Below are positions 13,382 to 34,319 of a stretch of 64,000 nt of DNA, one piece after another. Source of the DNA: an uncultured Prolixibacteraceae bacterium (GTDB lineage: Bacteria > Bacteroidota > Bacteroidia > Bacteroidales > FEN-979). Under the pieces are notes generated by a model. The model saw only the letters and a program-made list of their open reading frames with translations. It did no database searches and had not been told where the DNA came from. Position numbers and translations under genes: made by a program. Position 1 is the stretch's first letter. Every line of letters begins with the position of its first letter. The stretch is from the NCBI GenBank assembly GCA_964642545.1, contig CAZXQU010000005.1, positions 1,669 to 65,668 on the forward strand, in the 5' to 3' direction.

Positions 13382-14785
<1,404 letters not shown>

Positions 14786-14966: not shown

Positions 14967-14974
14967 TAATTTTG
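14967..14974 (+). promoter_or_regulatory. -7 box TAatTTTG for the 1290-aa sensor/PPDK_N gene
   Basis: Exact motif 24 nt upstream of the ATG at 14998. Confidence 0.45.
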
Positions 14975-14997
14975 GCACGACCATCCCCCATTTTAGC

Positions 14998-17900
14998 ATG
15001 CCAGGTAAGGACGAAAGAAAACGTGCAGGAAGAACTCCTGTCAACTCGAACGACGTTGAGAAACTCCTGCTGGATAATCGCGAAAGGCTCAAAGAACTTA
15101 CAGCGATTAACCATACCACGGCAATACTCAAGGAAAATAAGTCGATCCCTGATACGCTAACCCGAATTTGCCAGATTCTTCCAAAAGCATGGCAGTACCC
15201 AAAATATACTGTCATTCGTATCAGGTTTGATGAGATGGAGTTTACAAACAACAACTTCCGGGAAACTGCATGGAAGCAAGAGCAGGTATTTGAGACCATC
15301 GACAACCTGGTAGGCTCTCTGGAGGTCTTCTATGTGAAGGAGTTTCCGAAAGCATATGAAGGTCCTTTTCTGAAAGAGGAGCGCAACCTGATCAATACTC
15401 TCACCAGTTTAATTGAGGGTTACCTGAACGCCATCAAGGGGAAAGAAGGGAGGTATGTGACCACCGAAAGGCTGAAAGAGTTATCGGCGATAAATCAAAC
15501 CACCAGTATTCTCAGAACAGGAGCACCGCCCGATGAAGCACTGCATCAGATCTGTATGATTATTTCCAGGGCATGGCAGTATCCCGAATTTGCGGTTTGT
15601 AAGATCAAACACGGAAATATTGAAGTCCAAAGCCCCAATTTTCGCGAGACCCAATGGAGGCAACTACAGGTTTTTGAGACGATTGACAACCAGACCGGAT
15701 CTATTGAGATCTGCTATATAAAAGCATTCCCACAAGCGTTTGAAGGCCCTTTTCTGGAAGAAGAACGCGATCTGATCATCAACCTCTCCAACCTGATTGC
15801 AGGATATCTCAACTCTATCAAGGGAAAGGCAATCCTGAAAAAGAGCACACCCCATGCCGAGGAACCGGATAACGCCGATCGGGGAGGTGTTGATGGACAT
15901 TATAGCCGGCGACTCCTGCAGTCGTTCCTCAACCGAACAAACAACAACCGGGATATCTATCACGACCTGATGCCATTCAAGGTAAGGGAGATTCTGTTGG
16001 TTGCCAATCTGTATGATGCCTATAGCATAGAAAAAGAGGGACGGTTCTCGGAACATGTGTTGGGGCAGTTTTACCAGCTAAGCCTTAGCACGATGCCTCG
16101 AATCACCGGAGTCTCCTCCATCGAGGAAGTAATGGAACAGCTTCGTTCTAAGCACTACGACCTGGTCATTATCATGATGGGAGTTGACAAGCAGTTTCCT
16201 ACCGAACTCAGCACTGCCATAAAAAATGAATTCCAATACATCCCTGTATTCATGCTGTTAAACAGCAATACCGACCTGGCTCAGCTTGAAAAGGAACCAG
16301 ATCGGCTAAACTGGATCGATCGTGTATTTGTGTGGAATGGAGATACCCGGATCTTTTTTGCTATGATCAACTACCTGGAAGACAAGATCAATGTAGAGAA
16401 TGATACAAGACTGGGTATGGTAAGGGTGATCTTGCTCGTGGAAGACTCACCACAATATTATTCGCTTTATCTCCCGATGCTCTATAACATCGTACTGGAG
16501 CAAACCAAACACATCATTGAGGATGTCACAACGGATGAGCTTTACCGAATTCTTCGCCTCAAGGCCCGCCCGAAAATCCTGCTGGCTTCTACCTACGAGG
16601 AGGCAATGTATATCTTCAATAAATACAAGGAGTTTATTCTCTGCCTCATCTCAGATGTCAAATTTAAAAAGGATGGTAAGCTCAATGAAAATGCAGGAAT
16701 CATGCTTGTCAACCAAACCCGGAAAGAGGCCCGTGAGTTGCCAATAGTACTACAGTCCTCTGATGATTCCAATGCAGCAAAAGCCTATCAATTAAAAGCT
16801 TCCTTTATCAATAAAAATTCAGAGACCCTGTTGGTTGACTTCAGGAGTTTCATTACCCACTATTTGGGGTTTGGGAACTTCATTTACCGCGATAACGAGG
16901 GAAAACAGATCGGACTGGCAAAGTCTCTCAAAGAGTTCGAAGACCGGCTGAAAACAATCCCCGAAGAGTCGCTTTTATACCATGCCCGGAAAGACCACTT
17001 CTCCCTGTGGCTGACAGCACGCGGAGAGATCCAGGCTGCTAAGATACTCAACCCGGCCAAAGTTACCGACTTCAAGGATGCTGCAAGCTTGCGTGAATAC
17101 CTCATCTCGGTCATCTCCCATTTCAGAAATGAACAGAGCCGTGGGAAGGTAATCCCGTTCGAAGAATCATCCATCACCGATGCCACCAACATTGTCAGCT
17201 TAACTGAAGGAGCTCTGGGAGGGAAAGGTCGGGGACTGGCGTTTGTCAATACTCTGATATACAACTATGACTTCTCCCGACATGTCCCGAACATCAATAT
17301 ACTGACTCCAACTACCTCCATCATTGGAACGGATGAGTTTGAGTACTTCCTTGACAGGAACCATCTCAGGGAGAGAGCTGTTCAGGAGAGTGACTACCAA
17401 ATTATCCGTAGTTGGTTTGTGGAGGGGAAACTCTCGGAAACTCTGATCCGTAAACTGAGATTGCTGATCAGGCATCTGAACAAGCCGCTTGCCATCCGCT
17501 CCTCCGGACTATTTGAAGACTCCCTGAACCAACCTTTTGCAGGCATTTTTGAAACGTACCTGATCCCCAATGATCATCCAGATTCCAAAGTTAGGCTGGA
17601 ACAACTGAAGGATGCCATCAAACTCGTTTATGCATCTGTTTACTCTCCCACAGCCAAAGGGTATATTGAGGCCGTCAACTACCGTATCGAACAGGAGAAG
17701 ATGGCTATTGTGATCCAGGAGGTGGTTGGGAGCCAGCACGAGGATGTTTTCTATCCCCATATCAGCGGAGTTGCACAGTCGTATAATTATTATCCTTATG
17801 CCCACATGAAGCCTGAAGAGGGATTTGCCGTGATCGCGTTGGGCTTGGGACGTTTTGTGGTGGAAGGAGAAAAGGCGTTCAGATTTTCACCACATTATCC

Positions 17901-18870
17901 CGACCTGGAGATCAATTCGGCTGAAGATCAGCTAAAGGGGAGCCAGGTTCACTTCTACGGTGTTGACCTGGCAAAGAGCGATGTGAATCTGCTGGAAGGC
18001 GAAGATGCCGGACTCAGAAAAATGTATATCGACGATGCAGAACGACATGGAACTCTAAGACACCTCGCCTCCGTCTTCAGTCCCGAGAACAACAGAATCA
18101 TCCCGGGGTTAAGTCACTCTGGCCCAAGAGTAATTAATTTCGCTGACATTCTTAAATACAATTATATCCCCCTGGCCAAAACTATTGATGTAGTGCTTGA
18201 TGTAGTTCAGGAGGCGATGGGATCACCCGTCGAAATTGAGTTTGCCGTTGATCTGAACAAAGACAAAGAGAACAAAGCATCATTTTACCTGCTTCAGATT
18301 AAACCTCTGATTGGGAATGCAACTGATTTTGTGATTGACATGAAATCGATATCCAACGAGGAGATCCTGCTTTATTCGGAAAAAGAGATGGGGAACGGAC
18401 TTGTCAGTGATATCCATGATGTGATATTTGTGGATCCCGATACCTTTGATAAAACCAAAACCATGGAGATGGCAGATGAGATGGGAAAGATCAATTCTGA
18501 GATGTTGCAGGAGAAAAGGAAGTACATCCTGATAGGTCCGGGAAGATGGGGGACACGTGACAAATGGATTGGGATTCCAATCTCCTGGCCCCAAATATCC
18601 AATGCCAAAGTGATTGTGGAAACCAGTTTGGAAGGATTTCCCCTTGATGCCTCATCAGGTTCGCATTTCTTCCACAATGTGACTTCGATGAACGTGGGTT
18701 ATTTCTGTGTTCAGCCCGAGCTCTCAAAGAGTTTCATCAGGTATGATGTCCTGAAGAGACAATCAAAAATAGTAAAAACAGAGTTTTTCTCCATCGCCCA
18801 CTTTAAGAAACCACTGACAATTCGGATGGATGGGAAAAAGCGAATTTCCGTAATTACATTTGAACAATAA
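14998..18870 (+). CDS. Multidomain protein: 2 tandem GAF-like sensor domains + pseudo-receiver + receiver + PPDK_N-type (PEP/pyruvate-binding, ATP-grasp) domain + conserved C-terminal module. Not a canonical dikinase.
   Basis: Receiver motifs ILLVEDS...LISDVKF...PIVLQSSD...FINK. ATP-grasp region GGKGRGLAFV...AIRSSGLFEDS...FAGIFETY...MAIVIQEVV. C-terminus GPGRWGTRDKWIGIPISWPQIS...SGSHFFHN. No GGxTSHAA-type phosphohistidine motif. Confidence 0.75.
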   Translation: MPGKDERKRAGRTPVNSNDVEKLLLDNRERLKELTAINHTTAILKENKSIPDTLTRICQILPKAWQYPKYTVIRIRFDEMEFTNNNFRETAWKQEQVFETIDNLVGSLEVFYVKEFPKAYEGPFLKEERNLINTLTSLIEGYLNAIKGKEGRYVTTERLKELSAINQTTSILRTGAPPDEALHQICMIISRAWQYPEFAVCKIKHGNIEVQSPNFRETQWRQLQVFETIDNQTGSIEICYIKAFPQAFEGPFLEEERDLIINLSNLIAGYLNSIKGKAILKKSTPHAEEPDNADRGGVDGHYSRRLLQSFLNRTNNNRDIYHDLMPFKVREILLVANLYDAYSIEKEGRFSEHVLGQFYQLSLSTMPRITGVSSIEEVMEQLRSKHYDLVIIMMGVDKQFPTELSTAIKNEFQYIPVFMLLNSNTDLAQLEKEPDRLNWIDRVFVWNGDTRIFFAMINYLEDKINVENDTRLGMVRVILLVEDSPQYYSLYLPMLYNIVLEQTKHIIEDVTTDELYRILRLKARPKILLASTYEEAMYIFNKYKEFILCLISDVKFKKDGKLNENAGIMLVNQTRKEARELPIVLQSSDDSNAAKAYQLKASFINKNSETLLVDFRSFITHYLGFGNFIYRDNEGKQIGLAKSLKEFEDRLKTIPEESLLYHARKDHFSLWLTARGEIQAAKILNPAKVTDFKDAASLREYLISVISHFRNEQSRGKVIPFEESSITDATNIVSLTEGALGGKGRGLAFVNTLIYNYDFSRHVPNINILTPTTSIIGTDEFEYFLDRNHLRERAVQESDYQIIRSWFVEGKLSETLIRKLRLLIRHLNKPLAIRSSGLFEDSLNQPFAGIFETYLIPNDHPDSKVRLEQLKDAIKLVYASVYSPTAKGYIEAVNYRIEQEKMAIVIQEVVGSQHEDVFYPHISGVAQSYNYYPYAHMKPEEGFAVIALGLGRFVVEGEKAFRFSPHYPDLEINSAEDQLKGSQVHFYGVDLAKSDVNLLEGEDAGLRKMYIDDAERHGTLRHLASVFSPENNRIIPGLSHSGPRVINFADILKYNYIPLAKTIDVVLDVVQEAMGSPVEIEFAVDLNKDKENKASFYLLQIKPLIGNATDFVIDMKSISNEEILLYSEKEMGNGLVSDIHDVIFVDPDTFDKTKTMEMADEMGKINSEMLQEKRKYILIGPGRWGTRDKWIGIPISWPQISNAKVIVETSLEGFPLDASSGSHFFHNVTSMNVGYFCVQPELSKSFIRYDVLKRQSKIVKTEFFSIAHFKKPLTIRMDGKKRISVITFEQ
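15085..15468 (+). other. GAF-like sensor repeat 1 (128 codons) inside the 1290-aa protein
   Basis: RLKELTAINHTTAIL...AWQYPKYTVIRIRF...NFRETAWKQEQVFETIDN..GSLEVFYVKEFPKAYEGPFLKEERNLINTL. Confidence 0.6.
15469..15828 (+). other. GAF-like sensor repeat 2 (120 codons), a tandem duplicate of repeat 1
   Basis: RLKELSAINQTTSIL...AWQYPEFAVCKIKH...NFRETQWRQLQVFETIDN..GSIEICYIKAFPQAFEGPFLEEERDLIINL. Colinear with repeat 1; roughly half the positions are identical by eye. Confidence 0.6.
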
Positions 18871-18882
18871 AAACAGATTTTT

Positions 18883-19401
18883 ATGCGAGTTGCAAGAATT
18901 TACAGAAAAGAGGTCGTCACTGATGCGGATGAGATCGATCTCACCTTACTCGATCCTCTGATCAATAAATACAAAGGCAAAAAGGGGAATGTCATCCCCC
19001 TTCTTCAGGGAGCCCAAGAGTTATATGGATTTATCCCCCGTGCAGTGTTTGATTGGATCTCGGCAGGAACCGGGCTTCCCCTTAGCGATATGTTCGGTGT
19101 TGCGACTTTCTATGCCCAGTTTCGCCTGAAGCCGGTGGGAAAGCACATCGTGAAGGTATGCCATGGTACTGCCTGTCATGTGCAGAATGCCAAAGAAATT
19201 ACTGAAGCGATTGAGGAAGCCCTCAAGGTCAAGGATGGGGAGACCACCGAAGACCGCCTCTTCACCCTCGAATCGGTAGCCTGCCTCGGTTGTTGCTCCC
19301 TCGCCCCGGTGATGATGATCGGCGACCAGACTTATGGCAAACTGACCGGAAATGAAGCGATCAAAGTGATCAAGAACATCAGACTGGCAGAGAAAAACTA
19401 G
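18883..19401 (+). CDS. NuoE/HydC-like [2Fe-2S] thioredoxin-fold subunit
   Basis: CHGTACH...CLGCCSLAPVMMI cysteine pattern of the NuoE family. Only 12 nt downstream of the preceding gene. Confidence 0.9.
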   Translation: MRVARIYRKEVVTDADEIDLTLLDPLINKYKGKKGNVIPLLQGAQELYGFIPRAVFDWISAGTGLPLSDMFGVATFYAQFRLKPVGKHIVKVCHGTACHVQNAKEITEAIEEALKVKDGETTEDRLFTLESVACLGCCSLAPVMMIGDQTYGKLTGNEAIKVIKNIRLAEKN

Positions 19402-19412
19402 TTGCTAGTCCA

Positions 19413-19455
19413 CAGTTTGCAGTCTGCAGTTTTTGTAATTCCTGCCAACTGCCAA
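19413..19455. repeat. Two adjacent heptamer arrays (cagtttg cagtctg cagtttt ... ctgccaa ctgccaa)
   Basis: Read directly, in the nuoE-like/nuoF-like spacer. The CTGCCAA unit recurs at 60618-60652. Confidence 0.7.
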
Positions 19456-19471
19456 CGAAGGACTTGTTAAA

Positions 19472-19511
19472 TAAAGAAACCAATATTAAAGAAACCAATA
19501 TTAAAGAAACC
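19472..19511. repeat. Perfect 15-nt tandem repeat taaagaaaccaatat, 2.7 copies
   Basis: Copies at 19472-19486 and 19487-19501, plus a partial copy at 19502-19511. Ends 4 nt before the ATG at 19516. Confidence 0.9.
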
Positions 19512-19515
19512 TCGT

Positions 19516-21291
19516 ATGAGTACTACCGTAACTGTCGGACTTGGAAGCTGCGGAATTGCTGCCGGCGCTAATAAAACCTATGAAAAGATCAAGGCCCTGA
19601 AGGAGAGCGAAAACCTCGACTTTGATCTCAAGAAAACTAGTTGCATCGGGATGTGCTACCGCGAACCTCTGGTAGAGATTGTTGACGATACCGGAACCTA
19701 TATTTATGGAGATGTAAATGCCGAGCGTGCAATCGAAGTCATTGAGAAACATGTCACCCAGCACGACCCGATTCGGGATTATATCGTATACACCGACCTT
19801 TTTGATGCACCCGAGAATAGCTTCATGAACTCACAGGTAAAGATCGTGTTGCGAAACTGTGGCTATATGGACCCTGAGTCGATTGATGAATACGAAGCCC
19901 GCGACGGATACAAGGCAATCAAAAAGATCACAGTGGAGAAGATTCCTGCCGATCAGGTCATCGAAACGATACTCAAATCGGGTCTTCGTGGCCGCGGTGG
20001 TGGTGGATTCCCTACTGGGCTGAAGTGGAAGTTTGCCAGAGCGAATAAATCCGATGAGAAATATGTGATTTGTAATGCCGACGAGGGCGACCCCGGAGCC
20101 TTTATGGATCGCAGCATCCTTGAAGGCGACCCGCACTCGGTTTTGGAAGGGATGATCATCGCAGCTTATAGCATTGGAGCCACAGGCGGGGTCATCTACT
20201 GCCGAGCCGAATACCCACTGGCAATCAAACGCCTCAATATCGCACTGGCTCAGGCCCGTAAACGGGGATACCTCGGGAAAGAGATTCTCGGCATCAAGGA
20301 TTTCAATTTCGATATTTATATCAAGGAGGGAGCCGGAGCATTTGTTTGCGGAGAAGAGACTGCCCTTATCGCCTCCGTTGAAGGAGAACGAGGGATGCCT
20401 CGTAAGCGGCCGCCATTTCCTGCCGAATCGGGATTGTGGCGTAAACCTACCAACATCAATAACGTAGAGACCTTAAACAACATCCCCTGGATTGTTTTGA
20501 ACGGAGCTGAAGCCTTTGCCAAATACGGGACAGAGAAGAGTAAGGGAACAAAAGTATTCGCCCTCGCCGGGAAGGTCAGGAATTCGGGATTGGTAGAGGT
20601 GCCAATGGGTATCACCATCAACGAAGTGATCATGAAACTCGGTGGTGGGATCAAGAACGACAAAAAGTTCAAGGCGGTTCAGTTGGGCGGTCCTTCGGGA
20701 GGCTGTATCCCACAGTATCTTTCAGAGACTATAGTGGATTACGACTCGGTAAATGCTACCGGGGCGATCATGGGATCAGGCGGGATGGTTGTGATGGACG
20801 AAAGTACCTGCATGGTCGATGTGGCTAAATTTTTCCTCGATTTCACCTGTAAAGAGTCTTGTGGAAAGTGTACTTTCTGCCGGGTTGGAACGGTAAGGAT
20901 GCTGGAAATCCTCGAACGCATCACCAACGGCGAAGGGCGCGAAGGGGATATAGAAAAGCTTGAGGAACTGGCATATGAGATCAAGGATAACTCTCTGTGC
21001 GGGCTCGGTCAAACAGCGCCTAATCCTGTACTCACTACCATCAAGTACTTCAGAGATGAATATGAAGCGCACATTGTCCATAAAAAATGCCCCGCGAAAG
21101 TGTGCCGTCCATTGCTGACTTACACCGTTGATCAGGAGAAATGTACCGGTTGCATGGTTTGTTTGAAAAACTGTCCGGCCAACGCCATTACAGGAGAGCG
21201 CAAGCAACCACACCTCATCAACCAGGATCTCTGCACTCAGTGCGGCGTGTGTTATACAAAATGTAAGTTCGACTCGATTATCCTGACATAA
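19516..21291 (+). CDS. NuoF/HydB-like NAD(H)- and FMN-binding subunit with N-terminal thioredoxin-like 2Fe-2S domain and C-terminal 2x[4Fe-4S] ferredoxin extension
   Basis: GLRGRGGGGFPTGLKWKF, ICNADEGDPGAFMDR and ESCGKCTFCR (N3 cluster), followed by CTGCMVCLKNCP...CTQCGVCYTKC. Confidence 0.9.
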   Translation: MSTTVTVGLGSCGIAAGANKTYEKIKALKESENLDFDLKKTSCIGMCYREPLVEIVDDTGTYIYGDVNAERAIEVIEKHVTQHDPIRDYIVYTDLFDAPENSFMNSQVKIVLRNCGYMDPESIDEYEARDGYKAIKKITVEKIPADQVIETILKSGLRGRGGGGFPTGLKWKFARANKSDEKYVICNADEGDPGAFMDRSILEGDPHSVLEGMIIAAYSIGATGGVIYCRAEYPLAIKRLNIALAQARKRGYLGKEILGIKDFNFDIYIKEGAGAFVCGEETALIASVEGERGMPRKRPPFPAESGLWRKPTNINNVETLNNIPWIVLNGAEAFAKYGTEKSKGTKVFALAGKVRNSGLVEVPMGITINEVIMKLGGGIKNDKKFKAVQLGGPSGGCIPQYLSETIVDYDSVNATGAIMGSGGMVVMDESTCMVDVAKFFLDFTCKESCGKCTFCRVGTVRMLEILERITNGEGREGDIEKLEELAYEIKDNSLCGLGQTAPNPVLTTIKYFRDEYEAHIVHKKCPAKVCRPLLTYTVDQEKCTGCMVCLKNCPANAITGERKQPHLINQDLCTQCGVCYTKCKFDSIILT

Positions 21292-21350
21292 CCCCTCCCC
21301 AACCCTCCCCTAAAGGGGAGGGAGTAAGTCCCCTTTAGGGGATTTAGGGG
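21290..21350. repeat. 61-nt double-hairpin REP-like element, copy A
   Basis: aacccctccccaaccctcccctaaaggggagggagtaagtcccctttaggggatttagggg. Stems are ccctcccc/ggggaggg (loop taaa) and tcccc/gggga (loop ttta). 59 of 61 positions match copy B at 42451-42511. Confidence 0.85.
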
Positions 21351-21387
21351 CAAAAAGAAACCACAAAACATCAAAAAAATCATTGTA

Positions 21388-24300
21388 ATGTCTGAACAAT
21401 CACTAAACATCATATTGGACGGAAAAATCGTTAAGGGAACCCCCGGCGAGACCATTCTGCAACTTGCCACACGAAATGGGATCGAGATCCCTACACTTTG
21501 CAATGATAACCGCCTCGAACCCTATTCCTCGTGTTTCGTCTGCGTTGTTGCTGTAGAGGGCATGAGGGGTCATCAGCCTTCCTGTTCCACACGGATTACG
21601 GAAGGGATGAAGATCACCACCTTCAACGAATCAATCCGAAAATCCCGTAAGATGGCGCTGGAGCTGATGCTGAGCAACCATTATGCCGACTGTATCGGGC
21701 CATGCAAGCAGACATGTCCGGCCGGTGTCGATGTACAGGGGTACATCTCACTGATCGAGAAAGGCAACTACTCAGATGCCATTGCCCTTATCAAGGAGAC
21801 TAATCCCTTACCCGCCATTTGTGGCCGTGTTTGTGTACGCCCGTGTGAAAAAGAGTGCCGCAGAAACCTGCTGGATGAAGGATCGCCCGTTGGTATTGAT
21901 TACCTGAAACGATTTGCAGCCGACTGGGATTTGGCATCCCCGGATAAATTTGTTCCCGACATCAAGCCCTCTACCGGGAAAAAGGTGGCTGTGATTGGTG
22001 CCGGGCCGGGAGGATTGTCCGTTGGCTATTTCATGCAAATACAAGGGCATCAGGTGGATATCTTTGAAGCGGCTCCCCATCCGGGCGGATGGCTTCGTTA
22101 CGGAATTCCCGAATACAGACTGCCTAACGACATCCTGGATCAGGAGGTGAAAAATATTACCGATCTCGGTGTTCAGATCTTCTATAACAAGAAGCTGGGT
22201 GAAAATCTGAGTTACAAGGAGATTGCTGAAAAATACGATGCCACAGTTCTTACTATCGGTTCGCAGATCGGAACCGGGGTTGGATGCGAGGGTGATGATG
22301 CCGGGAATGTTTTTTCGGGGATCGACTTCCTGAAGAACATGGAGGTAACCGAACAACATTATGACTTCAGCGGAAAGACTATAGCCGTGGTTGGTGGCGG
22401 AAATACAGCTATGGACTGCTGCCGTACCTCCATCAGGTGTCATGCCGATAAAGTTTATGTGATCTACCGTCGAACGGAAAAGGAGATGCCTGCCAACCCG
22501 ATTGAGATCCATGAATCGAAATTGGAAGGAGTAGAGTACCTGTTCCTGACCCTTCCACAGAAGATCAACAAAAATGCAAAGGGAGAGGTCGAGACAGTTA
22601 CTTGTATCCGGATGGAATTGGGTGAACCCGATGCTTCTGGCCGTCGTCGGCCGGTTCCCATAGAGGGTTCCGAATTTGATATCAAGGTGGACTACATCCT
22701 GGCTGCCATAGGGCAGAAGACCGATGTAAACTGCATCGACGACATCAATACTACTACTTCAACCGGAGAACTGAAGATCAATAAATGGGGCGATATCGAT
22801 GCCGACCGGAATACACTTCAAACAGGCATTCCATCGGTGTTTGCCGCTGGTGACGGGGTTACCGGACCGGCAACCATCATTGAAGCGATAGCCCAGGCAC
22901 GCGTAGCGGCACACAGTGCGAACCAATACCTCATGGGAGAGGAGATTACACCGGGTAACAAGCCATTTACAAGCAAGCGCGAGAATTTTAAAAAGCAGGT
23001 CAAGGAGGATTTTCTTGGGGCCTTTGACAGCCAGATAAGGGAAGAGATGCCGGTACTGGATGCTGATCAGCGGATGAATTTCGATGAAGTGGAACTCGGT
23101 TACGCCGGGGAAGAGGTTGCACTGCATGAAACCCAGCGTTGCCTAGAATGTGGTTGTAATGCCTTTTTCGATTGTGACCTCCAGCAATATTCTACAGATT
23201 ACAATGCTGATCAAAAGGGATTTGCCGGGGCATATAAGGAGTACCAAGTTGACTTCCGTCATCCCTATATCGAAATCGACAATAACAAATGTATCCTTTG
23301 CTCACGCTGTGTCCGCATTTGCCGTGAAGTGGTTGGCGCCAATGCCCTGGGTCTCGTTAACCGGGGATTTGAAACCTACGTCTCACCAAGTATGGGAGAT
23401 TCTCTCCAGGATACCTACTGCGAATCATGCGGGATGTGTATCTCGACATGTCCAACCGGAGCCATTAGTGAAAATGTGCTCTTCAAACCAGGGCCGGTAC
23501 GCACCACCGCTGCCGAAACCATTTGCAACTACTGTTCGATTGGTTGTTCATTAAACCTGAATCACCTGAACGGTTTCGTGATGAATGTGACAGGAACCAC
23601 CGGATTGGTTAATGAAAAAGGAAATATCTGCCGGTTCCCCCGGTTTGGATACTCCTATCTGAACGATAGAAACCGCATCATCTCTCCTATGAAACGGGTC
23701 AATAGAAAATTTGAAAAGATCACCTTTGAGGAGGCGTTCAGGATCATGTTTGAGAAAATCAGATCGGTAGATCCGGATGATAATGTTTTTTTTGCGGGAG
23801 CACGGCTAACCAATGAAGAACTTTACCTGGTCCAAAAGCTGGCCCGCGCTGGTGCCAAGACCGGAAATATCGGAAGTTTCCATTACCTTAGTAGATGGCA
23901 GGCTTACCGAATGGATGAATCGATGAACACCTCATTTGGTGAGATTGATCAGGCCTCCAAAATTTTCTTGGTTGGTTCAGAAATAAACAGAGATAATGCT
24001 GTTGCAGGATTCATGGTCAGCAATGCCCGTGCAATGAAACATATTCCTGTAGTACTTGTTACAACCCGGGAAGAGAATGCCATGGCCCATAAAGTAGACA
24101 AGATTATCGAGGTAAAATCATACTACTACTTCACTAAAGCCGTAAATCATTTTCTCTTGACAAACAAGATGGAAAATACACTGTTCCTGCGTGATAGGGT
24201 GGATGGCTTGAGTGAATACAAAGAGCAGATGGCAACCGAGGATTATCCTGCACTGTTAGCTAATGCCGGAATAACGGCTGAGGTGGTAAAAAACTTTGCT

Positions 24301-25101
24301 GAAGAGTACAACAATGAGTTGAACGGGATTATCCTCTATTCTGAAAAGGAGGTTTCCGGCAATGGCGCCATCGCCCTGATGAATTTGGCTATGATCACCG
24401 GGAAACTTGGAAAAACCGCCAACGGGTTGATTGTCCTGAAAGAGAAGAATAACGCACAGGGGCTGTTCGACATGGGTATCAACCGGAAGTATGGCGTAGG
24501 GGGCAGGAGCCTGACTGATACAGCCTACCTGAAACACCTCATGGAAGCCTGGAAGGTTGATTCAATACCGGGTCCTGATCTTGTATGCCTCAAAACGAAC
24601 CTCACGCTAGGGAAGATCAAAAACATCTTTATCTTTGGGGAAGATCCCGTGGGATGCGACATTACCGGATCCTATTCCACATTGATTGAACAAATCCCGT
24701 TCAAAGTAGTTCAGGATTATTTCATGACGGATACGGCGAAGATGGCCGACCTGATTCTGCCAGCTTCATTCCCAACGGAAATTGGGGGCACCTTCTCCAA
24801 TACACAGAAGGTAATCCTGGAGTTTGACAAGGTTTTGCCTTCCCGTTTGGCGATGGATTCCATTCAGCAGCTCATCAAGACCCTGAAACGTTTCGGGTTG
24901 AATGGAGTGGAGAGCAGGGAGGATGTTTTCTCTGAGATCATCCAGCTGCTGCCGCAAACGGAGGAGGAGATGCCGGTTGAGAAACTCTCGCTGACGTACA
25001 GCGTTGACGATAATCCCAACCGTGCCTTTAACTTCGGATGCGACTACCTTGTGAAGCGATTTGAAGAGGAGTTTGAAAACCGAATGAAAAATGGAAATTA
25101 G
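21388..25101 (+). CDS. 1237-aa fusion subunit: N-terminal plant-type 2Fe-2S, then a GltD/NfnB-like FeS + FAD/NAD(P)H module, then NuoG/FdhA-type FeS cluster domains, then a truncated degenerate molybdopterin-oxidoreductase-like domain
   Basis: LNIILDGKIV..IEIPTLC..SCFVCVV. CPAGVDVQGYI..ETNPLPAICGRVCVRPCEKEC. KVAVIGAGPGGLSVGY...AVVGGGNTAMDC. CILCSRCVRIC, CESCGMCISTCP, CNYCSIGCSL. No Cys/Sec-His active-site motif and no C-terminal molybdopterin-binding barrel. Confidence 0.85.
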   Translation: MSEQSLNIILDGKIVKGTPGETILQLATRNGIEIPTLCNDNRLEPYSSCFVCVVAVEGMRGHQPSCSTRITEGMKITTFNESIRKSRKMALELMLSNHYADCIGPCKQTCPAGVDVQGYISLIEKGNYSDAIALIKETNPLPAICGRVCVRPCEKECRRNLLDEGSPVGIDYLKRFAADWDLASPDKFVPDIKPSTGKKVAVIGAGPGGLSVGYFMQIQGHQVDIFEAAPHPGGWLRYGIPEYRLPNDILDQEVKNITDLGVQIFYNKKLGENLSYKEIAEKYDATVLTIGSQIGTGVGCEGDDAGNVFSGIDFLKNMEVTEQHYDFSGKTIAVVGGGNTAMDCCRTSIRCHADKVYVIYRRTEKEMPANPIEIHESKLEGVEYLFLTLPQKINKNAKGEVETVTCIRMELGEPDASGRRRPVPIEGSEFDIKVDYILAAIGQKTDVNCIDDINTTTSTGELKINKWGDIDADRNTLQTGIPSVFAAGDGVTGPATIIEAIAQARVAAHSANQYLMGEEITPGNKPFTSKRENFKKQVKEDFLGAFDSQIREEMPVLDADQRMNFDEVELGYAGEEVALHETQRCLECGCNAFFDCDLQQYSTDYNADQKGFAGAYKEYQVDFRHPYIEIDNNKCILCSRCVRICREVVGANALGLVNRGFETYVSPSMGDSLQDTYCESCGMCISTCPTGAISENVLFKPGPVRTTAAETICNYCSIGCSLNLNHLNGFVMNVTGTTGLVNEKGNICRFPRFGYSYLNDRNRIISPMKRVNRKFEKITFEEAFRIMFEKIRSVDPDDNVFFAGARLTNEELYLVQKLARAGAKTGNIGSFHYLSRWQAYRMDESMNTSFGEIDQASKIFLVGSEINRDNAVAGFMVSNARAMKHIPVVLVTTREENAMAHKVDKIIEVKSYYYFTKAVNHFLLTNKMENTLFLRDRVDGLSEYKEQMATEDYPALLANAGITAEVVKNFAEEYNNELNGIILYSEKEVSGNGAIALMNLAMITGKLGKTANGLIVLKEKNNAQGLFDMGINRKYGVGGRSLTDTAYLKHLMEAWKVDSIPGPDLVCLKTNLTLGKIKNIFIFGEDPVGCDITGSYSTLIEQIPFKVVQDYFMTDTAKMADLILPASFPTEIGGTFSNTQKVILEFDKVLPSRLAMDSIQQLIKTLKRFGLNGVESREDVFSEIIQLLPQTEEEMPVEKLSLTYSVDDNPNRAFNFGCDYLVKRFEEEFENRMKNGN

Positions 25102-25134
25102 GAAATTAGGAAACTAGGAAATTAGGAAAATAGG
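25093..25134. repeat. 8-nt array, 5 units (ggaaatta ggaaatta ggaaacta ggaaatta ggaaaata)
   Basis: Read directly. Contains the last two codons and the TAG stop (25099-25101) of the 1237-aa gene. Confidence 0.85.
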
Positions 25135-25149
25135 TTATTTAAGTTTTAC

Positions 25150-25178
25150 ATGAAACCTGAAACCCTGAAACCTGAAAC
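25150..25178. repeat. 7-8 nt array, 4 units (atgaaac ctgaaac cctgaaac ctgaaac)
   Basis: Read directly, 10 nt upstream of the rubrerythrin-like ATG. Confidence 0.8.
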
Positions 25179-25187
25179 AAACCAAAT

Positions 25188-25643
25188 ATGATCGAATTTA
25201 ACAACATCAGCGATGTTCTCGATTTTGCGATCGGGGAGGAACAGGCAGCTGTAGAGTTTTACCTGAAACTGGCAGAATTGTCGAAAAATGAACAGGTTCA
25301 AAAAATCTTCTATGATTTTGCCGAAGAGGAGATGAAGCACAAGGCGAAATTAATAGAGGTGAAGATCAATGGTGCAACGGTGTTTGGGAACATTCCCATT
25401 GTTGACATGAAATTAGCGGATTACCTGGTAGATGTAAAAGCAACACCAGATATGTCATACGAGAAAGCCCTGATACTGGCAATGAAAAAGGAGAAGGCTG
25501 CTTTCAAGCTCTATACTGCATTGGCCGACCGTGCCAAACAACCGGAGATGCAGGAGATGTTCCGTCATCTGGCGATGGAAGAGTCAAAACACAAGATGCA
25601 GTTTGAAATTGAGTACGACGACTATATCCTGAGGGAAAATTAA
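25188..25643 (+). CDS. Rubrerythrin/ferritin-like di-iron four-helix-bundle protein (no rubredoxin domain)
   Basis: Two E-x-x-H motifs (AEEEMKHK and AMEESKHK) plus upstream Glu residues, in a 151-aa helical protein. Confidence 0.8.
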   Translation: MIEFNNISDVLDFAIGEEQAAVEFYLKLAELSKNEQVQKIFYDFAEEEMKHKAKLIEVKINGATVFGNIPIVDMKLADYLVDVKATPDMSYEKALILAMKKEKAAFKLYTALADRAKQPEMQEMFRHLAMEESKHKMQFEIEYDDYILREN

Positions 25644-25931
25644 GAGATATACTCCATGATCCCGAAGTAGATATGCCACGCCAGCTCCTTCTGAAACTCA
25701 GGATCTTTGTCTTTGTCCCCATCTGAGAAATCATATCGCAGCTTAAGGCTTAGGTTGTTATAAAGGAGCTCTACTTTAATTGCAATCATCTCTGCAAGTC
25801 GGTCTGACTTGGTTGTTCCCTTTGTTATGTATATCTCGAACCCTCTGGCCTGGCTGTTAAATGCATTTGAGTGGATGGAGATAAAATCTTCATTATCTTT
25901 GAATCCGCAGGAGAGAAAATTAGATCGTAAT
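25640..25931 (-). pseudogene. Remnant of an Amidase_3-type N-acetylmuramoyl-L-alanine amidase (C-terminal part only, apparent internal deletion, no start codon)
   Basis: Minus-strand frame reads ...DFISIHSNAFNSQARGFEIYITKGTTKSDRLAEMIAIKVE...LKLRYDFSDGDKDKDPEFQKELAWHIYFGIMEYIS*. An in-frame stop lies upstream at 25932-25934, and the N-terminal zinc-ligand half is missing. Confidence 0.45.
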
Positions 25932-25935
25932 CAAG

Positions 25936-28917
25936 ATGACAGAGAAGGCCAAAACAAGATCAATACTGGATCATAAAAAGTACTATTTCGCTGATACACA
26001 GTTCAACCTGATGATGGAGAAGCGAATTTACCAGATTCTGCTGATCTCAAGTACGTACGATGCCTTTATGCTGGAAGAGGATGGCCGTATTGATGAACAG
26101 ATCTTCATGGAGTATGTCTCCCTGAACCTACGGTACCCCCCACAGTTTATCAAGGTAACATCTGAAGAGGAGGCCTTTGCCGTATTGGAAGACAAACATG
26201 TGGAGCTGATTATTTCGATGCTAAGCATTGAGAAATCAGATACATTCGACCTCGCTCTTCGGATTAAAGAGAAGTACGCAAAGATCCCGATCGTTGCTCT
26301 AACGCCTTTTTCCCGAGAATCTAGCCTGAAATTAACCCAGAAAGACCTGAGTGCTATTGATTATGTCTTCTCCTGGTTGGGGAATGCTGATATCATGTTG
26401 GCGATCATCAAGTTGATTGAGGATAAAATGAATATTGATCAGGATGTCAGGCAGGGAGTGCAGGCAATCTTGCTGGTTGAGGACTCCATCCGGTTCTATT
26501 CAAGTTACCTTCCTAACATCTATAAAATCATCTTCAAACAATCCAAGGCATTTATGGCAGAAGGGTTGAATGAACACCAGAAGATGCTCAGAATGAGGGG
26601 TCGGGCTAAAATATTGTTGGCAACGAATTATGAGGAGGCAGTGGAGTTATGGGAAAAGTACCACCATAATTTGCTTGGAATTATTACCGATATCAGTTTT
26701 AAACGCCAGGGAGAAACGGATAAAACAGCTGGGATCAAGTTTGTAAAGAAGATTCGATCAGAAGATGAGTTTATGCCGGTCCTGTTTCAGTCTTCCGATG
26801 CAGAATACAAGGAAGTAGCACACCAGATGAGAGTGGGTTTTGTTAATAAAGTTTCCAAAACCCTTTCAATGGAGTTGCGAAATTATATTAACGAGCACTT
26901 CTCCTTTGGTGATTTTGTTTTCATTGACCCCAAAAATGGCCGGGAGATAAGCCGCGTGGCTGATTTGCGAACGATGCAGGAACGTATCTTTGAAATCCCC
27001 GACGACTCGCTACTCTATCTCATGCAGCGAAATAGGTTTTCTAAATGGCTAAACGCTAGGGCATTATTTCCGATAGCGGAATTGTTCGCCGAAGGATCTG
27101 TTTCCCACTTTCAAGATATGGATGAAGCCAAACGCTACATCTACGACTCAATTAAAGCTTTCAGGATCAATAAGGCGAGAGGAGTCATTGCTGATTTCGA
27201 TCGGGAACGATACGATGAATTCCTCCATTTCGGCCGGATTGGAGAGGGGTCAATTGGTGGGAAAGCAAGAGGTTTGGCTTTTCTCGACTCGTTGATTAAA
27301 CGTAACAGGTTAGCCGATAAATACAATGGGGTGACCATTTCGATTCCGCGTACGGTAGTGATTGGAACTGATATCTTTGATGAATTCATGGAGGAGAACA
27401 ATTTATATGAGATTGCTTTGTCGAATCGCAGTGACAGAGAAATTCTGGATCATTTTGTTGCCGCCCGGTTGCCATTCAGGATCCACGAAGATCTCTATAC
27501 CTTTATCACCTGCATCCGTAACCCTGTGGCAATCAGGTCCTCTTCTTTACTTGAAGATTCCCACTACCAGCCATTTGCCGGGATCTATTCGACATATATG
27601 ATTCCGAATATCCGGTTCAACGACCGGTTAATGATTGAGAAGCTGAGTGAAGCAGTCAAAAGCGTTTATGCATCTACCTTCTTCCATGACAGCAAAGCAT
27701 ACATGGCCGCAACGTTGAATATGATTGATGAGGAGAAGATGGCGATTGTTCTTCAGGAGGTTACCGGCAAGCAGTATGGTAACCGTTTTTATCCTACGAT
27801 TTCAGGTGTCGCCCGATCGATCAACTTTTATCCTATCGCACCTGAGGAGCCGGGAGATGGCATTGCAAATATTGCTTTTGGACTTGGAAAGTATATTGTC
27901 GATGGCGGAAACGGTATCAGATTCTCTCCGCGTTACCCGAAAAAAATATTACAACTCTCCACTCCTGAGTTGGCACTTACTGAAACCCAGAAAACCTTTT
28001 ATGCATTGGATTTGAATCCTGACAGTTTCCATGCTGATTGTGATGAGACGATCAATTTACTTAAACTTAAAGTCAAAGATGCCGAGAGCGATCCTGTGTT
28101 GAAACTGGTGGCATCAACCTACGATTACAACGCACACTCACTTCGGGATGGCATGCTGGCATCCGGGAAACGGTTGATTACCTTCTCAAATATTCTGACA
28201 CACGACACATTCCCTCTGGCAAAGATTCTACAAGAGATTTTAGAGATTGGACAAAAGGAGATGAGTAAACCGGTGGAGATTGAGTTTGCAGTGAATCTAG
28301 ATGTTCCAAAAGGGGAACCACGACTGTTTAGCATCCTTCAGATCCGTCCGATTGCCGGGCGTGATGAAACCCTTCACCTCGATCCCAAAACGATAGAGCA
28401 GGATGAGACTATCCTAATCTCAAATGCAGCATTGGGCAATGGGATTATCAATGATATCTCAGACATTGTTTACATCAAGCCTGAAGTTTTTGATGCTTCA
28501 AAAAGTATGCAGTTCGCGGCTCAGTTGGAGAAAATCAATGATCGTTTTCTGGAGGATAAAAAAAACTACATTCTGATTGGCCCTGGCCGTTGGGGTTCCA
28601 GTGATCCCTGGCTTGGCATTCCCATCCGATGGCCACAGATCTCTGCTGCCCGACTCATTGTGGAGTCAAGCCTGGAAAACTACCGGATCGATCCCAGTCA
28701 GGGAACACACTTCTTCCAGAATCTAACCTCTTTCCGGGTCGGATATTTCACAATCAACTCATTTATTGGAGAGGGTTCATACAATATCGGTTTCCTGAAC
28801 AGCCAGCCCGCATTATGGGAGAATGAGTTCATCAGGCACGTTCGGTTTGAGACAAATTGCAAAATTGCCCTGGATGGAAAAAAGAGCTTTGGGGTGGTAT
28901 TCAAGCCAATCCTATGA
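25936..28917 (+). CDS. Paralog of 14998-18870 without the GAF pair: pseudo-receiver + receiver + PPDK_N-type ATP-grasp + conserved C-terminal module
   Basis: ILLVEDS...IITDISF...PVLFQSSD...FVNK. GGKARGLAFL...AIRSSSLLEDS...FAGIYSTY...MAIVLQEVT. GPGRWGSSDPWLGIPIRWPQIS...SQGTHFFQN. Colinear with the first paralog. Confidence 0.75.
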   Translation: MTEKAKTRSILDHKKYYFADTQFNLMMEKRIYQILLISSTYDAFMLEEDGRIDEQIFMEYVSLNLRYPPQFIKVTSEEEAFAVLEDKHVELIISMLSIEKSDTFDLALRIKEKYAKIPIVALTPFSRESSLKLTQKDLSAIDYVFSWLGNADIMLAIIKLIEDKMNIDQDVRQGVQAILLVEDSIRFYSSYLPNIYKIIFKQSKAFMAEGLNEHQKMLRMRGRAKILLATNYEEAVELWEKYHHNLLGIITDISFKRQGETDKTAGIKFVKKIRSEDEFMPVLFQSSDAEYKEVAHQMRVGFVNKVSKTLSMELRNYINEHFSFGDFVFIDPKNGREISRVADLRTMQERIFEIPDDSLLYLMQRNRFSKWLNARALFPIAELFAEGSVSHFQDMDEAKRYIYDSIKAFRINKARGVIADFDRERYDEFLHFGRIGEGSIGGKARGLAFLDSLIKRNRLADKYNGVTISIPRTVVIGTDIFDEFMEENNLYEIALSNRSDREILDHFVAARLPFRIHEDLYTFITCIRNPVAIRSSSLLEDSHYQPFAGIYSTYMIPNIRFNDRLMIEKLSEAVKSVYASTFFHDSKAYMAATLNMIDEEKMAIVLQEVTGKQYGNRFYPTISGVARSINFYPIAPEEPGDGIANIAFGLGKYIVDGGNGIRFSPRYPKKILQLSTPELALTETQKTFYALDLNPDSFHADCDETINLLKLKVKDAESDPVLKLVASTYDYNAHSLRDGMLASGKRLITFSNILTHDTFPLAKILQEILEIGQKEMSKPVEIEFAVNLDVPKGEPRLFSILQIRPIAGRDETLHLDPKTIEQDETILISNAALGNGIINDISDIVYIKPEVFDASKSMQFAAQLEKINDRFLEDKKNYILIGPGRWGSSDPWLGIPIRWPQISAARLIVESSLENYRIDPSQGTHFFQNLTSFRVGYFTINSFIGEGSYNIGFLNSQPALWENEFIRHVRFETNCKIALDGKKSFGVVFKPIL

Positions 28918-28987
28918 ATGTTTAAAAAAAATTAAATCCAACGTATAACCTTTTGCCCCTTAACCGGATTAATGGCTAAAAAAAGCC

Positions 28988-29570: not shown

Positions 29571-29653
29571 GAGGGATGTGTTGATAGGATTATAGGTTGG
29601 TCTCAAGAAAGGAAGCGACAGCTCTGAGGCAGGATCTGCAGGTTTCAGTATAG

Positions 29654-32469: not shown

Positions 32470-34319
32470 TATTTCTCTGATCGTATCATATTCCTGGGAT
32501 CCAGTACCCGCTCCAACTCCTCCTTCGACATCAACTTCTTTTTTAGGACGAGATCATACACACTGTCTTCTGTCTCAAGTGCCTCTTTTGCTATCAGCGA
32601 ACTATTCTCGTAGCCAATATAAGGGTTGAGCGCAGTAACCAGTCCGATGCTGTTTTCGACCATCTTGCGGCAGTGCTCAGCATTTGCTGTGATGCCGTCA
32701 ATGCACCGGTACCGAAGTGAGTCCATGCCGTTCTTCAGCATCTCGATCGATTCGAGCAGGCTTTGCACGATCACCGGCTCCATCACGTTGAGTTCAAGCT
32801 GGCCGGCTTCAGCGGCAAAACTAACTGTTAGGTCGTTCCCAATCACTTTGAAGGCGATCTGGTTCACGACTTCAGGGATAACGGGATTAACTTTGCCGGG
32901 CATTATGGTAGAACCCGGCTGCATGGGAGGGAGGTTAATCTCATTCAAGCCGGCACGGGGCCCTGAGGAGAGTAGCCTGAGATCATTACAGATCTTACTA
33001 AGTTTGATTGCCAGACGTTTTACAGCGGATGAATAAATTACGTATTGCCCGGTATCCTGGGTCGCTTCAACAAGGTCAACCGCGAGCACGATGTCCAGTC
33101 CGGTTATCTTTCGAAGATATTCCACCACTTTCCCGCTGTATTGAGGGTTGGCATTCAGTCCGGTACCAATCGCAGTTCCCCCCATGTTGATCTCCAGAAA
33201 GAGGTTTGCATTCTCGTTCAGTCGTTCAATCTCTTCCCCCAGGGTGGTAGCGAACGCCCCAAAGGTTTGTCCCAGTGTCATGGGTACCGCATCCTGCAAC
33301 TGGGTTCTTCCCATTTTGATAATAAGGGAGAATTCGACCGATTTTTTGCGGAAGGAGTCGATGAGCTGTTTGAGTACATTCACCAGCTTTTCATTACTCC
33401 GGAAAAGAGCGAGCTGGATAGCAGTAGGATAGACATCGTTTGTCGATTGCGACAGGTTAACGTGGCTGTTGGGATGACAGTACGTGTATTCGCCTTTTTT
33501 ATGCCCGAGTAACTCGAGTGCACGATTGGCTATCACCTCGTTGGCATTCATGTTTGTGGAGGTGCCGGCTCCTCCCTGAATCATGTCCACTACAAAGTGG
33601 TTCAAGAAACGGCTGTCGATAATCTCAAGGCAGGTGCGAATGATGGCATCTGCCATATCTTTTGGAAGCAGTCCAAGGTCATAATTGGCTTCTGCAGCTG
33701 CCATTTTCACAATTGCCAGGGATTTCACCAGTTCGGGGTAAGAATTGAGCCTGACGCCGCTGATATTGAAATTCTCCAGAGCCCGGAGTGTTTGAATGCC
33801 ATAGTAGTATTCATAAGGAACCTCGCGTTCGCCAAGCAAATCATGTTCAGTGCGGGTTCGGCCCGATTCATACTGGGCCGAATCGTCGGAGCTGAGATGA
33901 ACAGCATAACGCAATCTCCGGGAAATAACCCTTGAGATGTTCGACATCACCTTGACAGCAATTGCCCCGTGATGAGAAAAAAAGTCAATCCCCAGGCAAA
34001 GTGTTGTGCTCTCTTCCAGGGCACGCGCCGATGTTGAGTGCGGGTATGTGTCGAGGAGAGACCCTTCACCCAGAAAGTCATATTCGCGGAAGGAGGTGAT
34101 GAACTTCTCCTTTCCAGAAGTTGTCGCCTTAAACAATTCGATCTTTCCGCTCACGACAAAAAAGATCTCTTTTCGGGGTTCGTTTCTTTTGAAAAGGAAC
34201 TCACCGGGTTCAAATGTCTTGAGTGTAACCAAATCGGCTGTGACTGCAATCTCTTCATCCGTGAGATCACGAAAAAGTTCGACTTGGTGCAAAAATTCTT
34301 TGATCTTCAGAAAATCCAT
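32469..34319 (-). CDS. aspA: Aspartate ammonia-lyase with an N-terminal cyclic-nucleotide-binding-like (CAP effector) domain fusion
   Basis: From residue 155 or so it is colinear with E. coli AspA as I remember it (EHDLLGEREVP..YYG.QTLRA.ENF; GRTQLQDAVPMTLGQ; KICNDLRLLSSGPRAGLNEINLP; GSTIMPGKVNP). Residues 8-135 have the cNMP-binding fold pattern. Confidence 0.9.
   Translation of the reverse strand: MDFLKIKEFLHQVELFRDLTDEEIAVTADLVTLKTFEPGEFLFKRNEPRKEIFFVVSGKIELFKATTSGKEKFITSFREYDFLGEGSLLDTYPHSTSARALEESTTLCLGIDFFSHHGAIAVKVMSNISRVISRRLRYAVHLSSDDSAQYESGRTRTEHDLLGEREVPYEYYYGIQTLRALENFNISGVRLNSYPELVKSLAIVKMAAAEANYDLGLLPKDMADAIIRTCLEIIDSRFLNHFVVDMIQGGAGTSTNMNANEVIANRALELLGHKKGEYTYCHPNSHVNLSQSTNDVYPTAIQLALFRSNEKLVNVLKQLIDSFRKKSVEFSLIIKMGRTQLQDAVPMTLGQTFGAFATTLGEEIERLNENANLFLEINMGGTAIGTGLNANPQYSGKVVEYLRKITGLDIVLAVDLVEATQDTGQYVIYSSAVKRLAIKLSKICNDLRLLSSGPRAGLNEINLPPMQPGSTIMPGKVNPVIPEVVNQIAFKVIGNDLTVSFAAEAGQLELNVMEPVIVQSLLESIEMLKNGMDSLRYRCIDGITANAEHCRKMVENSIGLVTALNPYIGYENSSLIAKEALETEDSVYDLVLKKKLMSKEELERVLDPRNMIRSEK
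33915..34319 (-). other. cNMP-binding-like domain of the AspA fusion
   Basis: LFRDLTDEEI...FEPGEFLFKRNEPRKEIFFVVSGKIELFK...DFLGEGSLLDTYPHSTSARA. The phosphate-binding-cassette Arg is replaced by His. Confidence 0.7.

Follow-up and report, generated by a model that had tools for sequence, protein, structure and literature searches.

The 64,000-nucleotide stretch of an uncultured Prolixibacteraceae bacterium analysed here, called the window in its full length, encodes two very large proteins, P1 and P2, in which receiver-like domains precede an ATP-grasp domain of the kind found in phosphoenolpyruvate (PEP) synthase and pyruvate phosphate dikinase (PPDK). The two genes enclose a redox operon of three NfnABC-like subunits and a ferritin-like protein, and directly upstream of P1, on the opposite strand and transcribed divergently, lies the gene of an NADP-specific glutamate dehydrogenase, or GDH (Table 1), which scores 767 bits against NCBIfam NF006929 at a cutoff of 536. 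We found that the P family is widespread and uncharacterised, and that the family itself, its C-terminal domain and its pairing with GDH across phyla are what is new at this locus. The open reading frame (ORF) map reproduced exactly all the ORF coordinates, the plus strand and the 12-nt gap between P1 and NfnC that a first-pass annotation of this DNA had given, and the gene order also stood as listed, except that the GDH gene directly upstream of P1 had been omitted. This short gap suggests that P1 and NfnC are co-transcribed. A spacer of 292 nt (25644-25935) separates the ferritin-like gene from P2. A sigma-70 promoter and terminator scan of 13300-29800 gave counts equal to the shuffled expectation, such a scan not covering Bacteroidota promoters.

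Table 1. Features of the GDH, P1, Nfn and P2 region of the window, with the evidence for each.
Feature	Coordinates	Strand	Description and evidence
NADP-specific GDH, 451 aa	13382..14737	minus	Pfam ELFV_dehydrog_N and ELFV_dehydrog; NCBIfam NF006929
P1, 1290 aa	14998..18870	plus	2x GAF-like, pseudo-receiver, receiver, helical linker, PPDK_N ATP-grasp, family-specific C-terminal domain
P1 tandem ~130-aa sensor-like modules, weakly GAF-like	15049..15834	plus	residues 18-149 and 150-279
P1 pseudo-receiver	15976..16374	plus	without acidic pocket and phospho-acceptor Asp; alignment to P2, sequence inspection
P1 receiver	16423..16839	plus	E483/D484, D553, S587, K606; columns invariant in ortholog alignment
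P1 PPDK_N-type ATP-grasp	17212..18312	plus	PF01326 3.4e-38; GGK743, RSS..ED, QEV, EIEFAV, LQIKP
P1 C-terminal alpha/beta domain	18313..18867	plus	GPGRWG loop, SxGSH1223FFxN
NfnC, NuoE/HydC-like [2Fe-2S] subunit, 172 aa	18883..19401	plus	Pfam 2Fe-2S_thioredx 3e-49; PDB 9bov_C
NfnB, NuoF/HydB-like FMN/NAD(H) subunit	19516..21291	plus	Pfam; PDB 8oh5_B
NfnA, 1237-aa fusion	21388..25101	plus	Pfam; PDB 9bov_A
Ferritin-like di-iron protein, rubrerythrin family, 151 aa	25188..25643	plus	Pfam Rubrerythrin 9e-15
P2, 993 aa	25936..28917	plus	pseudo-receiver, receiver, linker, PPDK_N ATP-grasp, C-terminal domain
P2 pseudo-receiver	26020-26415	plus	
P2 receiver	26458-26874	plus	D252
P2 ATP-grasp	27250-28392	plus	
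P2 C-terminal domain	28393-28914	plus	H925
Aspartate ammonia-lyase with N-terminal cyclic nucleotide monophosphate (cNMP)-binding domain	32469..34319	minus	possible further neighbourhood member

Over 968 aa, P1 and P2 share 38% identity, which bears out the paralogy proposed for them at first sight, and every one of the motifs quoted at that time is present in both. The Pfam family Response_reg is matched at 1e-11 in P2 and weakly in P1, and the second receiver of both proteins has the canonical residues (E182/D183, D252, S286 and K305 in P2, with their P1 counterparts in Table 1), all of them invariant in the alignment of orthologs. The first receiver-like domain is without these acidic residues in P1 as well as in P2, and is thus a pseudo-receiver. 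P2 was modelled with AlphaFold2 on the basis of 61 diverse sequences, at a mean predicted local distance difference test (pLDDT) of 84, and Foldseek matched the N-terminus of the model to PleD, a REC-REC protein (E 4e-7), as well as to PorX; the helical linker faintly resembles DUF5752. P1 carries, in addition, two copies of a ~130-aa module that are 54% identical to each other and share 34-36% identity with the N-terminus of the "long" partner proteins described below for other phyla, most P1 orthologs (1147-1190 aa) having one copy. Neither of the window copies matched Pfam even at E<=10, the profile of the module gave zero matches in the PDB, and GAF was weakly matched in 4/7 homologous modules elsewhere (best E 0.0028); of the two GAF-like domains first annotated here, then, the tandem duplication is real and the GAF identity is weak. 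The arrangement as a whole is like that of PleD (REC-REC-GGDEF), PorX and RssB, which combine a canonical and a degenerate receiver with an enzymatic output after them and have no DNA-binding domain. Unlike the PleD-type regulators, P1 and P2 have a dikinase-type ATP-grasp as output, and we know of no prior description of such an output in a response regulator; moreover, the degenerate receiver comes first in P1 and P2, whereas in PleD it is the second one.

The ATP-grasp core is well supported in both proteins, with PPDK_N (PF01326) matched at 3.4e-38 in P1 and 7e-41 in P2, and with the modelled ATP domain of P2 matching rifampin phosphotransferase 5hv1/5hv6 (E 1e-12; TM score 0.71, normalised to the isolated ATP domain) and PPDK 1kbl by Foldseek. 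Over 61 sequences of 34-92% identity, the invariant residues, in P2 numbering, are GGK443, R534/S535/S536, E540/D541, Q607, E781/E783 and Q802 in the ATP-grasp, and G882xGRWG887, E910 and S921xGxH925FFxN929 in the C-terminal domain. Both paralogs retain every one of them, and therefore neither P1 nor P2 would appear to be a pseudo-enzyme. The conserved Lys, Arg, Glu and Gln ligands of the PPDK_N domain are those of PEP synthase, PPDK, rifampin phosphotransferase and PigC; unlike these dikinases, P1 and P2 have no detectable swivel, PEP/pyruvate-binding or rifampin-binding domain, and carry instead the C-terminal domain of 180 aa together with the N-terminal receivers.

The source annotations "phosphoenolpyruvate synthase" and "pyruvate, phosphate dikinase", as well as the PPDK_N match itself, would be explained if P1 and P2 were ordinary PEP synthases or pyruvate phosphate dikinases that happen to lie at this position, a case to which we give hardly any credence. 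The PEP-utilizers swivel domain was not found in P1 or P2 by Pfam, NCBIfam, PDB profile search, hhalign or Foldseek, nor was the PEP/pyruvate-binding TIM barrel (PEP-utilizers_C) found by any method, both proteins ending ~175 aa past the ATP-grasp. The NCBIfam PEP-synthase models reach 15-49 bits against cutoffs of 598-1063, over the ATP-grasp region only, and the gene neighbourhood, as described below, is conserved across phyla. The first-pass annotation had likewise seen no phosphohistidine swivel or PEP domain, and this stands, so that P1 and P2 are not ordinary dikinases. Its distinct C-terminal module shared by the two paralogs was also upheld, as an alpha/beta domain of ~180 aa with the GRWG loop and the invariant His, modelled in isolation at a pLDDT of 90.9, and with no relative in Pfam or the PDB by sequence or by fold; the search of full-length P2 against PDB sequences gave zero matches as well. 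By eye, this domain has some features of a swivel, namely a Gly-rich hairpin, two strands, a G-[ST]-H where a helix begins, one more strand and, last, the motif "vDG..G.v". As a candidate very divergent phosphohistidine swivel, it failed in Pfam, PDB profile, Foldseek and hhalign searches, and we keep it as a low-probability lead only. There is also a likeness to the split dikinases, such as phenylphosphate synthase PpsABC and AcvAB, whose PPDK_N module is apart from the other catalytic parts and whose partner subunits are encoded side by side; the split dikinases, however, retain a recognisable His-carrier subunit, and none is encoded in the conserved GDH-P clusters.

The profile of the C-terminal module found 1924 representatives of 50%-identity clusters at E<1e-3, in which this module is invariably preceded by PPDK_N. 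The family occurs as the receiver form of ~990 aa, as a "short" form of ~570 aa that consists of the catalytic core only, and as a "long" form of ~1055 aa with a P1-like N-terminal GAF-like module, the core, and a C-terminal NTP_transf_2 nucleotidyltransferase of the Pol-beta type. The P1 and P2 cores are 36-40% identical to the short form and 27-28% to the long form. Their database names include PEP synthase, PPDK, "PEP/pyruvate-binding domain-containing protein", response regulator and hypothetical. The long form is carried by the loci L084-L092 (for example L085 8785-11946), several of which have a Metallophos phosphoesterase after it.

The three genes between P1 and P2 belong to a family that is already known. 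The structures of NfnABC/Stn enzymes were the best PDB matches of all three subunits, over full or nearly full length: NfnC matched 9bov_C (4e-57), and also 8oh5_A and 9n5u_C; NfnB matched 8oh5_B (5e-266), 9n5u_B (7e-261) and 9bov_B (3e-260) over its full length; and NfnA matched 9bov_A (9e-233), 8oh5_C (1.5e-216) and 9n5u_A (2e-184). By Pfam, NfnB has Complex1_51K, NADH_4Fe-4S, two Fer4 (536-586) and a weak N-terminal 2Fe-2S_thioredx (24-78), and its residues 4-591 are covered by 8oh5_B, 9n5u_B and 9bov_B, whereas complex I NuoF covers only ~110-525. The N-terminal 2Fe-2S and the C-terminal 2x[4Fe-4S] extensions, from which this subunit had been called HydB/Bfu-type and not of complex I, were thus found. 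NfnA (Pfam Fer2_4, Fer4_20, Pyr_redox_2, Fer4_Nqo3, Molybdop_Fe4S4 and Molybdopterin) is laid out as an N-terminal 2Fe-2S domain, an NfnL/GltD-like FAD/NADPH domain and a NuoG/Fdh-like domain, the latter matching Molybdopterin PF00384 and not Molydop_binding at E<=0.01. The NfnABC of Caldicellulosiruptor saccharolyticus (Csac) has subunits of 130, 64 and 20 kDa, with a large subunit of three-domain layout (PMC11829005), and the window trio agrees with it in sizes and domain layout; related work on this enzyme family has also been published (PMC10482914, PMC7483475). Because of this strong full-length homology to purified and structurally solved enzymes, the trio is assigned to the Bfu-family NfnABC/Stn NADH-dependent ferredoxin:NADP+ oxidoreductases, a characterised family and not a new one, with the predicted reaction NADH + reduced ferredoxin + 2 NADP+ <-> NAD+ + oxidised ferredoxin + 2 NADPH. 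What had been proposed as a candidate electron-bifurcating module is, then, rightly of the HydB/Bfu type by Pfam and PDB matches, within a family already characterised and solved. Among the type 1 enzymes of the Bfu family, the C. saccharolyticus NfnABC (9bov/9bp5), the Sporomusa ovata StnABC (8oh5/8oh9) and the archaeal Nfn-Bfu (9n5u) have the same three subunit sizes and domain order as the window trio; unlike them, the latter comes from the Bacteroidales, has a ferritin-like gene after it, and is embedded between two receiver/ATP-grasp genes.

This ferritin-like gene follows NfnA in 34/38 close and 9/42 distant NfnA loci of the comparison described next, including loci without P genes, and it is therefore a member of the Nfn operon. 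Its product of 151 aa has two ExxH di-iron motifs and zero Cys, and hence no rubredoxin (Cys4) domain; the rubrerythrin annotated at first is a ferritin-like protein of the rubrerythrin family, not a canonical rubrerythrin.

We compared the neighbourhoods from the side of Nfn in 80 metagenome loci with an NfnA ortholog of 58-90% identity, split at 64% identity. At or above 64%, a P-family gene was present in 36/38 loci, and in 19/19 of those with good flanks, and these close loci keep the order of the window: GDH on the opposite strand, P1, NfnC, NfnB, NfnA, the rubrerythrin-like gene and P2. Below 64%, it was present, in varying arrangements, in 7/42 loci (5/12 of the well-flanked ones). Most of the distant Nfn operons occur by themselves, and the association between P genes and Nfn is far above chance. 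In the locus of the closest genome (L001, P2 86% identical), the slot between P1 and P2 (7167-9857) is occupied by proteins of 297 and 594 aa, a classical NfnSL/NfnAB-type pair (PDB 5jca_S, 2e-95, and 4ylf_B, 4e-163), which is a non-orthologous replacement of NfnCBA by an architecturally unrelated enzyme predicted to have the same function. Its large subunit has ~130 extra N-terminal residues compared with the solved NfnB/NfnL. No other single observation argues as strongly for a genuine functional link as the presence of NfnSL in the slot of NfnCBA.

From the side of the P family, we compared 80 species-representative Bacteroidales genomes with a P2 ortholog of 55-86% identity, among which 42 loci are well flanked, with at least 8 kb upstream and at least 3 kb downstream. 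Here P1 lies directly 5' of P2, with nothing between, in 30 loci; GDH is a neighbour in 19/80 (17 within 1.5 kb of P2, in varying arrangements), and the two-subunit 2-oxoacid:ferredoxin oxidoreductase (KorAB, TIGR03710) in 25-26. The usual layout in the Bacteroidales is this oxidoreductase, P1, P2 and GDH, with P1 and P2 adjacent, GDH staying divergent from P1 in the clade of the window. NfnA was found within 10 kb of P2 in only 6/80 genomes, and Nfn between P1 and P2 only in the lineage of the window and a few others. At least one of GDH, the 2-oxoacid:ferredoxin oxidoreductase and Nfn lies within 10 kb in 30/42 well-flanked loci. In other phyla, all of the sampled loci (9/9, with source labels that include Spirochaetales, Terriglobales, Zixibacteria, Eisenbacteria, Fermentibacteria, Stygibacter and a separate Bacteroidota lineage) have the order GDH, short, long, the start and stop codons of the short and long genes overlapping and a Metallophos phosphoesterase often being beside them; two of the nine have, in addition, a receiver-type P2 adjoining a second GDH of 454 aa. 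Bacterial genomes have one or two GDH genes, and the chance of finding one as a neighbour within 10 kb is therefore ~1% by our own estimate; set against the adjacency observed, this makes GDH the conserved partner of the P family. In one of these loci (L092), a pair of a histidine kinase and a sigma-54 activator lies just upstream of the GDH gene of the GDH-short-long cluster.

The link to the bifurcating enzyme is accordingly real and lineage-specific, and we read the window as an older GDH-P1-P2 cluster into which the NfnCBA-ferritin operon was inserted in this lineage. The first-pass annotation made its proposal depend on P genes and redox genes lying together in other genomes, and this they do in the 36/38 close and the 5/12 distant well-flanked NfnA loci, as a feature of certain lineages that reaches 6/80 P2 genomes. 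Nfn as a general partner of the P family did not hold, given these 6/80 genomes and 0/9 loci of other phyla. One could still suppose that the Nfn complex itself is the target of P1 and P2, which would be its ATP-dependent activators, modifiers or assembly regulators, given the P genes at the close NfnA loci and at 7/42 distant ones, the gap of merely 12 nt between P1 and NfnC, the NfnSL pair in the NfnCBA slot, and two loci (L014 and L142) in which NfnCBA lies directly 5' of P2 and P1 is missing. We regard a direct action on Nfn as improbable, because NfnA is so seldom near P2 in the Bacteroidales and never in the other phyla sampled, because the unrelated architectures of NfnABC and NfnSL make one modifier for both less likely than a shared metabolic role, and because the Csac and S. 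ovata enzymes show activity in purified form, with no partners of this kind (PMC11829005, PMC7483475). Of the regulators or ATP-dependent modifiers of the redox complex that had been suggested, the co-localisation with Nfn thus remains, with GDH taking the place of Nfn as the general partner.

Given their sensory inputs, an intact ATP-using core and no DNA-binding domain, we read P1 and P2 as signal-gated ATP-dependent modifying enzymes. What we infer of their chemistry, target and control by phosphorylation makes up a tentative reading, to which we give somewhat less than an even chance, namely that both may be receiver-gated ATP-dependent modifiers of the NADPH/2-oxoglutarate/glutamate node, with GDH as the likeliest target. 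In this mechanism, a histidine kinase would phosphorylate the second receiver (at D252 of P2 and D553 of P1), with the GAF-like modules contributing a ligand input in the case of P1; the ATP-grasp would then be switched on for an ATP-dependent phosphoryl or pyrophosphoryl transfer, probably via the invariant His as in dikinases; and the target would be in the NADPH/2-oxoglutarate/glutamate node, most likely the NADP-GDH, put under a covalent on/off control. Nfn as supplier of NADPH, the 2-oxoacid:ferredoxin oxidoreductase as likely supplier of 2-oxoglutarate, and GDH as the consumer of both would form one single ammonium-assimilation route, and this would explain why each of these enzymes recurs beside P1 and P2. 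The nucleotidyltransferase of the long form and its phosphoesterase neighbour also fit a reversible covalent switch. The same logic of an ATP-using modifier encoded beside a branch-point enzyme is found in AceK acting on isocitrate dehydrogenase, in GlnE/GlnD acting on glutamine synthetase/PII, and in PDRP acting on PPDK, and the long form shares the NTP_transf_2 nucleotidyltransferase with GlnE and GlnD; there is, however, no sequence homology of the P family to AceK, PDRP or the GlnE core, and the likeness is one of analogy, not of membership.

The PPDK_N enzymes characterised so far (PEP synthase, PPDK, rifampin phosphotransferase and PigC) all use small molecules or glucans, and for this reason P1 and P2 have to be considered also as small-molecule enzymes under receiver control, whether kinases, dikinases or ligases, whose substrate would be glutamate, 2-oxoglutarate or a derivative, with the C-terminal domain as substrate or phosphate site and the paralogs as a hetero-oligomer. 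The Gly-rich GRWG loop after a beta-strand does resemble a phosphate-binding loop, the overlap of the short and long genes suggests that they are translationally coupled and share an operon with GDH, as enzymes of one pathway do, and split dikinases with a separate ATP subunit exist, AcvAB being an example. We nevertheless think such an activity rather unlikely, since the receiver and GAF-like inputs, the nucleotidyltransferase of the long form and the Metallophos neighbour resemble regulatory enzymes (GlnE/GlnD plus a phosphatase), and no ATP-requiring step is obviously missing around GDH.

Several observations weigh against a GDH-directed covalent modifier. Gene neighbourhood cannot separate a modification of GDH from an action on a metabolite of the same pathway, 12/42 of the well-flanked loci carry none of the three partner enzymes, and P1 was not seen in roughly every second P2 locus. 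The KorAB association is in part a matter of inherited synteny, in a BamA-OmpH-OmpH-MurI-KorAB block, and on account of this long inherited block we rejected it in part as fully independent evidence. Dikinase-type chemistry through the C-terminal His would be argued only from that His being invariant: the domain had no relative in Pfam (24 members, E<=10), a PDB profile search gave nothing relevant, and Foldseek against the PDB gave nothing significant (best E 0.011, TM <0.3), with no dikinase among its matches even though the isolated PPDK central domain 2fm4 is a PDB entry. In the same sense, hhalign of the domain against the swivel of C. symbiosum PPDK, a query validated beforehand against 1kbl and 2fm4, returned a probability of 0.3%. 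No histidine kinase (HisKA/HATPase_c) was seen among the window ORFs scanned by Pfam, a part of all its ORFs, in line with what had been noted from the sequence at first; a cognate kinase may be encoded in another part of the genome. Finally, our literature searches (PPDK_N with response regulators, PF01326, GDH with dikinases, and GDH phosphorylation) found no paper on the P family.

At its most general, the P family might be a phylum-spanning group of ATP-grasp "protein dikinases", possibly nucleotidyl-transferring, that covalently switch GDH and NADPH-dependent ammonium assimilation by means of a new His phospho-carrier domain, and that in the Bacteroidales are wired to two-component signalling and co-encoded with a bifurcating transhydrogenase, a proposal that we offer as doubtful in this full extent. 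Ammonium enters biomass at two points, of which GDH is one, and no dedicated post-translational control system is established for a bacterial GDH, none having come up in our literature searches. An uncharacterised enzyme pair beside GDH in many phyla makes its control directly testable, and points to an undescribed layer of control on nitrogen assimilation. In the anaerobic Bacteroidales, the cluster joins ferredoxin-dependent 2-oxoacid synthesis, bifurcation-based NADPH production and NADPH-dependent ammonium fixation, which are usually studied apart. It also adds a new kind of response-regulator output domain and a domain unmatched among the solved structures, besides correcting the names PEP synthase and PPDK that thousands of database entries now bear.

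Other genes recur around these clusters. In many of the loci L013-L075, an Fe/Mn superoxide dismutase (in 16) or OsmC (in 9) is found beside P2. Taken with the ferritin-like gene of the Nfn operon, this is a hint of a link to oxidative stress around these oxygen-sensitive enzymes, or else a matter of inherited synteny. The aspartate ammonia-lyase of the window (NCBIfam aspA family) is joined to a cNMP-binding domain in an unusual regulatory fusion, and L004, L008, L014 and L035 each have an ortholog of it within 10 kb of P2. The spacer before P2 is a variable spot among relatives: in the window it contains only one minus-strand ORF of 49 aa, in L081 (20503-22569) an AbiEii/DUF6922 toxin-antitoxin-like pair and small ORFs sit at this position, and in L083 (20047-20057) the ferritin-like gene is missing and the gap between NfnA and P2 is only 9 nt. 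Just 3' of P2 (28988-29551, plus strand), an ORF of 187 aa has a sub-threshold match to a REP-associated tyrosine transposase (NF047646, E 1e-13, 51 bits at a cutoff of 80) and no Pfam match. Upstream of GDH (3395-13335, plus strand) lies a polysaccharide-synthesis block, with an ABC-type auxiliary transporter component, a flippase-like gene, several glycosyltransferases and a Wzy-type polymerase, whose content differs between close relatives (L081 and L083). Farther away and unrelated to the P genes, a bacterial alpha-2-macroglobulin of 1889 aa (54883-60552, plus strand) adjoins a PBP1c-type penicillin-binding protein with Transgly, Transpeptidase and BiPBP_C domains (60597-63002, plus strand), a gene pair familiar from other bacteria.

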